Source: Escherichia coli (lineage in GTDB: Bacteria; Pseudomonadota; Gammaproteobacteria; Enterobacterales; Enterobacteriaceae). Taken from it: a stretch of DNA of 64,000 bases. Position 1 is the stretch's first letter. Each line of letters opens with the position of its first letter. Made by a program: the position numbers and the translations under genes. The stretch lies in assembly GCF_003334355.1 (NCBI RefSeq), contig NZ_QOWP01000022.1; one strand, given 5' to 3'. The notes below the pieces were generated by a model. That model did no database searches. It had not been told where the DNA came from and saw only the letters and a program-made list of their open reading frames with translations. This document shows positions 41,368 to 44,439 of this stretch, one piece after another.

Positions 41368-42792
41368 TTACTGCATTAACAGGTAGATGGTGCTGTCGCC
41401 GCGCTGAATGTTGAGTGCCAGCACAGACGGTTTGCTGTCGAGAACTTTACGCAGTTCAGCGATGTTTTTCACTGCCTGCTGGTTCGCGCCAATAATCACA
41501 TCACCTTTCTTCAGGCCGATCTGCGCAGCCGGAGTGCCCGTTTTCACGTTGTTCACTACCACGCCCTGATCTTTGCCTTTGTTGCTCATCTCAGCGCCTT
41601 CAATGCCGTTGAAGATGGAGCTGGAATCAACCTGATTCTGGCTGCTCTGCTGCAGTTCCAGGTTCACGTTAACCTGCTTACCGTCGCGCAGTAAGCCCAG
41701 GGTCAGTTTGCTGCCTACCGGCATAGTACCCACCTGAGCACGCAGTGCGGCAAAGCTGCTGATCGGCTTACCGTTCAGTGAGGTGATCACATCACCCGCT
41801 TTAATGCCCGCTTTTGCAGCGGAGGAATTAGGCAGAACCTGGCTTACGAAAGCACCGCGCTGGGCGTCAACTTTCATCGCTTTCGCCAGTTCGGAGTTCA
41901 GCTCAGTCCCCATAATACCCAGCTCACCGCGTTTCACCTGGCCGTATTCCACCATCTGCGAGGTCAGGTTTTTCACCATGTTACTCGGGATAGCAAAACC
42001 GATACCGATGTTGCCGCCGTCCGGTGCGAGGATCGCGGTGTTGATACCGATCAGTTCGCCGTTCAGGTTAACCAGCGCACCACCGGAGTTACCACGGTTG
42101 ATCGCTGCATCGGTCTGGATGAAGTTTTCGTAGTTTTCGGCATTCAGGCCGCTACGCCCCAGCGCAGAGACAATCCCGGAAGTTACCGTCTCGCCCAGAC
42201 CAAACGGGTTACCAATCGCTACGGTGTAATCACCCACGCGCAGTGCATCAGAATCCGCCATCTTAATTGCGGTCAGGTTTTTCGGGTTCTGGATTTGGAT
42301 CAGCGCGATATCAGAGCGCGGATCTTTGCCAACCATCTTCGCGTCGAACTTACGGCCATCGCTCAGTTGAACTTTAATGACCGTCGCGTTATCAACAACG
42401 TGGTTGTTGGTGACGACATAGCCTTTATCGGCATCAATGATGACGCCGGAACCCAGCGCCATGAATTTCTGTTGCTGGCCGCCACCATTACCGCCCTGGC
42501 CACCCTGGCAGAACGGAGAGCTCTGGAACGGAGAACCTTCCTGGCAGAACGGAGAATCATCACCGAAGAACTGCTGGAAATTACGCGGCATACGCGGCGT
42601 ATTAACGGTTGTGCTACCTTCTACGTTAATGCTGACCACTGAAGGCATCACCTTTTCGAGCATCGGTGCAAGGCTTGGCATCTGCTGGGCTGTCGTTGCT
42701 GAAGAAGTCTCAGCCGCCGTTGCAGAGAGCGGAGATAACGCCAAACCTAAACTCAGAGCCAGTGCACTCAGTGCTAATGTGGTTTTTTTCAT
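41368..42792 (-). CDS. degP: Periplasmic serine endoprotease/chaperone DegP (HtrA)
   Basis: ORF track, 474 aa; signal peptide; catalytic Ser motif GNSGGAL; two PDZ domains. Confidence 0.97.
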   Translation of the reverse strand: MKKTTLALSALALSLGLALSPLSATAAETSSATTAQQMPSLAPMLEKVMPSVVSINVEGSTTVNTPRMPRNFQQFFGDDSPFCQEGSPFQSSPFCQGGQGGNGGGQQQKFMALGSGVIIDADKGYVVTNNHVVDNATVIKVQLSDGRKFDAKMVGKDPRSDIALIQIQNPKNLTAIKMADSDALRVGDYTVAIGNPFGLGETVTSGIVSALGRSGLNAENYENFIQTDAAINRGNSGGALVNLNGELIGINTAILAPDGGNIGIGFAIPSNMVKNLTSQMVEYGQVKRGELGIMGTELNSELAKAMKVDAQRGAFVSQVLPNSSAAKAGIKAGDVITSLNGKPISSFAALRAQVGTMPVGSKLTLGLLRDGKQVNVNLELQQSSQNQVDSSSIFNGIEGAEMSNKGKDQGVVVNNVKTGTPAAQIGLKKGDVIIGANQQAVKNIAELRKVLDSKPSVLALNIQRGDSTIYLLMQ

Positions 42793-42838
42793 GTATTTCA
42801 GTCTCGATTAACAGATAACGCAAAATTGCTGTGTTCTT

Positions 42839-42865
42839 CAGATTCGTTTTATAGCCTGAAGTTCC
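42839..42865 (-). promoter_or_regulatory. degP: Sigma-E-type promoter for degP
   Basis: Seen in sequence: minus-strand GGAACTT (-35), 16-bp spacer, TCTGA (-10), located 50-75 bp upstream of the degP start. Confidence 0.6.
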
Positions 42866-42921
42866 GAACTAAAGTTTCTGCAAAAGGTAAAAATTTATTG
42901 TTCGTCTTTACAAAAGCCTGG

Positions 42922-44439
42922 TTATTGTTCTACGGCCATCAGACGTCGGTATTCATCCCACGCATAGAGGTCGGTCATACCGCTGATATAATCCTGCAGC
43001 AGGCGGCAACGGTAATAATATTCCCATAGCGGAAACTCAGGAGAATCTGACGGTAATTTACTGACAGCCTCGACATAGGCCAGCCGATGGCGCGTCGAGA
43101 GTTTGTGGAATAAGCGCGATTCAATAGGGAAACGTTTCACCCGTTCTTTTTCTACCAGTTCAGTAAAGTCTGATAACGACAGGCTTAATAAAGGACGATA
43201 AATCTCTAATAATCCGCTAATGACCCGATAGCCCTGCAATTCAAGCTGCTCGACATCTGGATGGCTAAACACATGTTTTACAGCGACATTTTTATATAGC
43301 TTAAGAAGATCGCTGCATTCGCTGGCATCTTCCAATAATGCATGATTAAACGTTCCGGCGAAAATCGCAGGCAGATTATCAATAAATCGTTGTGCCGCGT
43401 AGGGTACCAGTTTATTTAGGGTGTTTACTCGTAAATACATAAAAAACTGATCTTCCGTACTGCGACTTAAACTATTTGAGCGTGATTTTTCCCAGGCATT
43501 TTCAACCACTAGCGAAAAGAGCGAACCTTTCTCATGCTGGCCCCACGCTTCGTGCAAATGATGATAAAGCTGCTCAACGGTAAATATTCTTTTCTCTACC
43601 GCATCTTCAAGGTCTGCCACACAATAGGAGATGTCGTCGGCAGCTTCCATAATCCACGTTAATGGAAAACGACTGTAAAGCGCCAAATTAAGTTCTTTAC
43701 GCAACCGCGCAATATAGGCTTCTTCAGAAAGATAATAACCCGGCTTTTTCATTAAATAGTGATGTGTCTCAGGCGTTTCGCCACGCCACCACGCCGGACG
43801 GGTATATTTTAAAATACCGCCAACCTGTGCCCAGGTGAGATTCATCCGCATCAATGTATGCACCAGACGAATGCCTTGTGCATTCCCCTCAAAATGACAT
43901 AAGTCCTGACGAATCTTGCGCCGCAGCTCGTTAAGCGGTTCTTCCCCGTCCCGTAAACGTAGTGCCGCCACGCTGCAGCGATCGTCAGTCAGAGGCTGGC
44001 TTTCGGCATCTTCCGGGTGCAAACGTTGGCGAAACCAGTCATTTATCGCTGCTTCGCCAAAATGACCAAACGGCGGATTGCCGATATCGTGCATCAGGCA
44101 TGACATCTCAACAATGCTTTCAAAGGGGCCGGTCAGTTCATCCAGGCCGTATGCTTCCAGCAATTTAAGCTCTTTCAGACGGCTTAAAATTTCTTTGGCG
44201 ATGTAGCGTCCCACCTGCTGGACTTCCATCGAGTGGGTAAGACGCGTGCGCACGGCGGCATTGCGCTCCAGTGGAAAAACCTGGGTCTTTTGTTGCAGAC
44301 GACGAATTGCCGGAGAGTTGATGATACGCCCGCGATCGCTCTCGAAGATCCGCAGGATCTCATGTTCGGTTTTAACGCCCTGCGGTGAACGGTAACGACG
44401 ATGCCAGTTTATTTTTTTTCGGAAATCAATCTGTGCCAT
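42922..44439 (-). CDS. dgt: dGTP triphosphohydrolase
   Basis: ORF track, 505 aa; HD-domain motif [10 protein letters not shown]. Confidence 0.96.

Follow-up and report, generated by a model that had tools for sequence, protein, structure and literature searches.

The window analysed here, that is, the whole stretch of Escherichia coli DNA with a length of 64,000 nucleotides, contains on its minus strand an open reading frame of 505 aa (44439..42922) followed by one of 474 aa (42792..41368), both located from the list of open reading frames and by reading of the sequence. In matching database records the former is annotated as dgt (dGTPase) and the latter as degP (serine endoprotease DegP). 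The gap between the two genes extends from 42793 to 42921 and measures 129 bp, as the preliminary description of this DNA had stated. A 501-nt query covering the junction matched many E. coli chromosomes with 100% identity, and identity was at least 99% in 5422 of the 5425 matching records. By this identity, the region is the E. coli degP (htrA) promoter itself, in agreement with the published one in both locus and sequence. No novelty is claimed for it: the sigma-E promoter, the listed CpxR site and the catalogued thermometer were all already known from previous descriptions. Coordinates of the features are collected in Table 1, for which MG1655 positions were converted locally (window = 223676 - MG1655 coordinate).

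The arrangement was compared among 80 Enterobacteriaceae loci obtained through a DegP scan of GTDB species genomes, from genera including Escherichia, Citrobacter, Salmonella, Enterobacter, Klebsiella, Kluyvera, Kosakonia, Buttiauxella, Mangrovibacter and others. The conservation figures given below derive from 77 distinct upstream sequences, which were aligned with MAFFT. It can be observed that dgt lies directly upstream of degP in all 79 loci with enough flanking sequence, and that the gap spans approximately 119-143 bp in 78 of these 79. The gaps of about 120 bp recorded for some loci, for example L013 of Salmonella arizonae, are really about 129 bp long, a TTG lying 9 nt ahead of the real start codon having been taken. 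A longer gap, of 214 bp, was displayed by Intestinirhabdus alba (L011), where extra DNA is located beside dgt; there, neither the conserved upstream block nor the sigma-E promoter is disrupted, and both keep their usual distance from degP.

Table 1. Features of the dgt-degP junction in window coordinates (signed positions are relative to the transcription start site)
Feature	Position	Strand	Basis
degP start codon ATG	42790..42792	-	sequence, ORF list, annotation matches
HtrA 5' UTR thermometer, Rfam RF02700 (fourU hairpin)	42787..42832	-	77 bits
Transcription start site (A) = MG1655 180844	42832	-	two start-site maps; alignment column A
sigma-E -10 element TCTGA, -10..-6	42838..42842	-	exact match
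16-nt spacer CAGGCTATAAAACGAA, includes conserved TATAAA at 42853-42848	42843..42858	-	sequence and alignment
sigma-E -35 element GGAACTT, -33..-27	42859..42865	-	exact match
25-bp pseudo-palindrome GTAAA-N5-ACAAT-N5-TTTAC, -79..-55	42887..42911	-	sequence and alignment
CpxR box 'degP1' GTAAAGACGAACAAT, -79..-65	42897..42911	-	known site, PMC9600279 Table S1
dgt stop codon TAA	42922..42924	-	sequence, ORF list, annotation matches
Weak dgt-internal start site = MG1655 180669	43007	-	Cappable-seq score 1.8
CpxR box 'degP2' GTAAATTACCGTCAG, within dgt CDS	43047..43061	-	PMC9600279 Table S1

Core promoter and start site

The core promoter in the gap is composed of GGAACTT, a 16-bp spacer and TCTGA, an arrangement that the preliminary description had reported for the minus strand and that is borne out here, since the match is exact and GGAACTT-N16-TCTGA occurs only once in the 64 kb when both strands are considered. 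TCTGA is of the TCNNA type, the T, C and final A of the regulon consensus TCAAA being matched. The position of the promoter had been described more loosely. It does lie in the gap, as claimed, but not just downstream of the dgt stop codon, the -35 element beginning 57 bp past it. Similarly, initiation almost at the end of dgt is an approximate statement, as the mapped start site is 90 nt past the stop codon. It is the upstream activator region, not the core promoter, that abuts the dgt stop, beginning 11 bp after it.

The preliminary description had proposed a check against published start-site maps, the outcome of which is favourable. The degP start site was placed at MG1655 180844, with a 5' UTR of 40 nt, by Kim et al. 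2012 (PMC3415461), whose 51-nt upstream sequence TGCAGAAACTTTAGTTCGGAACTTCAGGCTATAAAACGAATCTGAAGAACA is equal to 42882..42832 of the window on the minus strand, and the same position was obtained with a score of 41.6 by Cappable-seq (Ettwiller et al. 2016, PMC4782308). These two independent maps agree on 42832, and from the dgt stop to the degP ATG no MG1655 plus-strand start site other than 180844 is listed. The geometry was judged against a spacer of 15-19 nt, with 16 nt strongly preferred, and a distance of 25-28 nt from -35 to +1. According to Rhodius et al. 2006, sigma-E prefers a 16-nt spacer, a discriminator of 5 or 6 nt, a -35 to +1 distance of 26 or 27 nt, and initiation at a purine. 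In each of these four respects degP has the optimum, with a spacer of 16 nt, a discriminator of 5 nt (AGAAC), 26 nt separating the -35 motif from +1 and a start at A. This A is located 6 nt past the last base of TCTGA, which is 1-2 nt fewer than the 7-8 nt anticipated in the preliminary description; that figure was mis-specified, and the sigma-E promoter stands. All the defining features of a sigma-E promoter that can be tested in a sequence are present.

Conservation of the two elements was high among the 77 aligned sequences. The -35 element was GGAACTT in 59, GGAACTA in 12 and TGAACTT in 6, GAACT being invariant, while the -10 element was TCTGA in 66, TCTTA in 7, TCTCA in 3 and another variant in the remaining 1. 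The spacer had a length of 16 nt in 74 of the 77 and 17 nt in the other 3, and the aligned +1 column contained A in 100%. The average identity to the base present in E. coli was 0.97 in the -35 and 0.96 in the -10 element, whereas it was 0.64 in the stretch between the upstream block and -35, 0.53 in the nine bases past the stop codon and 0.51 in the discriminator. Many genera carry an insertion of 7-8 nt after TCTGA, typically TAGTCAC (loci L012, L021, L023, L025, L027, L044, L070, L077 and others), when compared with Escherichia, Citrobacter, Salmonella and Enterobacter. In Klebsiella, the mapped sigma-E-type start is 8 nt past TCTGA, not 6.

The degP promoter is one of the two founding sigma-E promoters, and its original mapping is said to be that of Lipinska in 1988 and of Erickson and Gross in 1989. 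The other classical sigma-E promoter, rpoH P3, likewise combines a -35 element of the GAACTT type with the unusual TCTGA instead of TCAAA at -10, but differs from degP in that it is without a CpxR box and is one of several tandem promoters. The sigma-E dependence of the 42832 start site rests on the literature. Overproduction of sigma-E induces degP 56-fold, the strongest response of all genes (PMC2731931); furthermore, degP is represented in the Gross laboratory library of 60 sigma-E promoters (PMC3326320) and belongs to the conserved core sigma-E regulon (PMC1312014). RNA polymerase with the envelope-stress factor sigma-E would read GGAACTT and TCTGA, 16 nt apart, and would begin transcription at the A of 42832. 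Taken as a whole, the best explanation of the gap is that it carries the known sigma-E, CpxR-assisted promoter of degP together with its leader, for which we estimate a probability of about 95%.

CpxR sites and the conserved upstream block

A search of 42870-42921 for CpxR sites of the form GTAAA-N5-GTAAA had been suggested in the preliminary description. The listed box 'degP1' does lie inside this range, but it is degenerate, differing from the pattern by 3 mismatches, and it was therefore overlooked by the search with up to 2 mismatches, which gave no match in the dgt-degP gap. In the whole window, 72 sites with up to 2 mismatches were found against 45 expected, and a CpxR site with 3 mismatches, judged on sequence alone, would be indistinguishable from chance. 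Within the upstream block, GTAAAG, CAAT and TTTAC are each 100% conserved in the 77 distinct enterobacterial sequences, and the block is the best-conserved stretch of the gap, above the core promoter. Such a strong phylogenetic footprint over 'degP1' supports a probable function of the site rather than the identity of the bound protein. The right arm of the block, read on the plus strand, is GTAAA, an inverted half-site 20 bp or two helical turns away. Moreover, the A/T-rich right half of the block sits where sigma-E UP elements lie, A/T-rich UP sequences upstream of the sigma-E -35 being described by Rhodius et al. 2006. The second listed box, 'degP2', which falls outside the coordinates of the preliminary description, was rejected as a conserved element, its bases and even the encoded residues varying across genera.

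The dependence of degP on the Cpx system is strong according to published measurements. Expression of degP rose 26.6-fold in cpxA24 and 32.4-fold with pNlpE, but only 6.4-fold with pNlpE in a cpxR deletion (PMC9600279), while CpxR overproduction alone was without degP induction, for which limiting sigma-E was held responsible by the authors (PMC2731931). Phosphorylated CpxR, positioned on the conserved GTAAA-containing block (-79..-55), would boost degP transcription. In its listed CpxR site and strong Cpx dependence, degP resembles CpxR-activated promoters (PMC9600279), and it shares a perfect upstream GTAAA half-site with the cpxP box GTAAAACAACGTAAA, which is a GTAAA-N5-GTAAA tandem. Unlike promoters of the cpxP type, however, degP has ACAAT as its second half-site, within a 25-bp pseudo-palindrome that includes an inverted GTAAA, and its core promoter is read by sigma-E whereas those of the cpxP type are read by sigma-70.

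Alternative sources of degP transcription

If the motif pair were a chance resemblance, degP would have to be transcribed from elsewhere. Relaxed searches are compatible with such coincidence, as GAACTT-N15-17-TCNNA gave 1 match against 1.04 expected per window and the full sigma-E pattern with up to 2 mismatches gave 3 matches against 3.3 expected; these patterns are uninformative alone, and it is consequently the exactness, position and conservation of the motif that carry the argument for a promoter. The exact GGAACTT-N16-TCTGA was found in none of 100 dinucleotide-preserving shuffles (mean 0.00), and simple arithmetic with 12 specified bases and 128,000 positions gives a chance expectation of approximately 0.008. 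Furthermore, the motif has canonical spacing to the one start site mapped in the gap and is kept in 77 distinct sequences from many genera, while the flanking bases drift. The start-site maps effectively refute mere resemblance, the likelihood of which is practically nil. Rather unlikely, by comparison, is an overlapping promoter, probably sigma-70-dependent and CpxR-assisted, which would use the TATAAA of the spacer, start near 42839, the G of TCTGA, and mediate part of the Cpx control in place of Esigma-E. Only 180844 is given for the E. coli gap by Cappable-seq and by Kim 2012, yet a Salmonella start with a 47-nt leader lies 7 nt upstream of that with the 40-nt leader (PMC5602114), and in Klebsiella a start falls on the G of TCTG (51-nt leader), with 25 reads against 11 at the sigma-E-type site. 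TATAAA is located 8 nt upstream of the E. coli position equivalent to this Salmonella/Klebsiella start and is at least 88% conserved at each position in the 77 sequences. Danese et al. in 1995 reportedly proposed Esigma-E 'and perhaps other RNA polymerases' as the enzymes with which Cpx acts. However, a sigma-70 scan of the minus strand of 42300-43300 returned no site, no acceptable -35 hexamer is present 17 +/- 1 bp upstream of TATAAA, and an A/T-rich mid-spacer is common to sigma-E promoters generally (PMC3326320).

Transcription entering from dgt was the other source to be weighed. The preliminary description had found no dedicated dgt terminator evident, and our analysis agrees: 0 terminator-like sites were detected by a consensus scan of 42300-43300, compared with 1.1 expected in shuffles, and the folds of 42860-42935 and 42793-42940 were no stabler than shuffles (z = +0.56 and +0.80, respectively). 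Adams et al. 2021, in the accessible part of their Term-seq tables, give no 3' end for dgt; the plus-strand 3' end that follows is the degP terminator at MG1655 182347. The 129 nt of gap RNA (A45 C23 G22 U39) are A/U-rich and C-poor, and thus would make a poor loading site for Rho. In Salmonella, htrA transcripts with leaders of 215 or 449 nt begin inside dgt and cross the gap (PMC5602114), which makes some read-through plausible. The weak E. coli start site at 43007 is 215 nt upstream of the degP ATG, equal to the distance of the 215-nt leader in Salmonella. It is preceded by TATTAT at 43020-43015, in which the two TAT codons show 88% and 95% conservation at their synonymous third positions, and the 'degP2' box falls at -54..-40 relative to it. 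The Cappable-seq scores were 9.8, 6.3 and 4.3 at the dgt promoter and 1.6-1.8 inside dgt, against 41.6 for degP without stress, so that any contribution of read-through would be small.

Read-through from dgt into E. coli degP, which the preliminary description had termed conceivable, is therefore plausible in view of the missing terminator and the long Salmonella leaders, but probably minor in view of the weak upstream starts; for read-through specifically from the dgt promoter in E. coli, its occurrence is what we infer. As dgt is without an intrinsic terminator, low-level transcripts from its promoter or from inside the gene can enter degP, and they would provide a small stress-independent baseline. 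That such transcripts supply a substantial share of degP mRNA, with dgt-degP acting as an operon, is very unlikely. The lack of both a terminator-like element and a tabled dgt 3' end, the unpromising Rho loading site and the gap-spanning Salmonella transcripts, with a weak E. coli start at the homologous -215, would all suit an operon; on the other hand, the start sites of dgt are far weaker than that of degP even when unstressed, and for dgt no response to sigma-E like the 56-fold one of degP is reported (PMC2731931). Moreover, dgt behaved oppositely to degP in the CpxR study, with values of 0.77 and 0.29 (PMC9600279), and neither dgt, degP nor 180844 appears in the accessible part of the SMRT-Cappable-seq supplement, where no full-length dgt-degP read was found either. 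A more elaborate and quite unlikely proposal is that the 42911-42887 block, instead of being an ordinary tandem CpxR box, is a two-orientation composite site, occupied either by a head-to-head pair of CpxR dimers or by CpxR and another factor, which might act on the sigma-E promoter as well as on an overlapping sigma-70 promoter at the spacer TATAAA, while unterminated dgt transcription adds a stress-independent floor of DegP.

The degP leader and comparison with Salmonella

The known sigma-E promoter of degP produces a leader that is itself a catalogued element. In the Rfam scan of the window, the HtrA thermometer model was matched over its positions 1-46 of 46 with 77.0 bits, compared with a gathering score of 52, and the 5' end of the match coincides with the mapped start site, the 5' UTR comprising the 40 nt of 42832-42793. 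The thermometer was absent from the preliminary description of this gap. In the minimum-free-energy fold, U8-U11 and G12 are paired with C27-A31, which covers the Shine-Dalgarno GAGA (42805-42802); a bulged C13, an upper stem of 4 bp and a loop of 5 nt complete the hairpin, the energy of which is -3 kcal/mol. It is no more stable than shuffles (z = +0.95), being weak, as thermometers are. RNAalifold applied to the leader alignment predicted no consensus structure and no pairs; among 51 distinct leaders, 75.9% of cells were paired, against 75.1% in shuffles, and the covariation score of the leader, matched by 146 of 500 shuffles, was not above controls.

For the Salmonella htrA leader, SHAPE shows cooperative melting at approximately 36 C (PMC5602114), and the reviews consulted attribute the HtrA thermometer to Salmonella only. 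Of 46 positions, 3 differ between the leaders of E. coli and S. enterica subsp. arizonae. Because the two are nearly identical, we infer that the thermometer probably also functions in E. coli. The 40-nt leader would form a weak fourU hairpin by which the Shine-Dalgarno sequence is partly hidden, and melting of this hairpin near 37-42 C would add heat control at the level of translation.

The closest known system is Salmonella enterica htrA, which has promoters P1 and P2, the sigma-E-dependent P3 and a fourU thermometer (PMC5602114). The dgt-htrA layout is common to both species, the S. arizonae locus has the same -35 and -10 elements as E. coli, and both leaders have 40 nt, a bulged C and a 5-nt loop. 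E. coli differs from Salmonella in that only the sigma-E-type start is prominent, the site for the 47-nt leader being unlisted and that at -215 very weak, and in that C at leader position 32 breaks a stem-base pair present in Salmonella. With three inputs stacked in about 130 bp, degP offers a teaching example of layered control: sigma-E reports outer-membrane protein stress, CpxR reports periplasmic or inner-membrane stress, and the thermometer reports temperature.

Several other sites were observed in the window. In the accessible part of the Term-seq tables, a primary 3' end of degP (MG1655 182347) corresponds to approximately 41329 on the minus strand, 39 nt past the stop codon and inside a hairpin rich in G+C, CCCCTTCC...GGAAGGGG; this position is also entered there as a 3' end upstream of an ORF, 116 nt before cdaR, with a 'Yes' flag. 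A sigma-E-like sequence, CGAACTT-N16-TCTGG, with 2 mismatches, is present at 28111-28138 (minus strand), such sites being at chance level (3 against 3.3), so that it is no more than a lead. Other sigma-E promoters known in this region are those of the bamA, skp and lpxD area. Two further Rfam matches exceeded their gathering scores, namely CssrA (RF02798) at 32882-32991 with 136.6 bits and t44 (RF00127) at 33830-33916 with 83.5 bits, both on the minus strand; on the MG1655 map we take these two to be located around rpsB.
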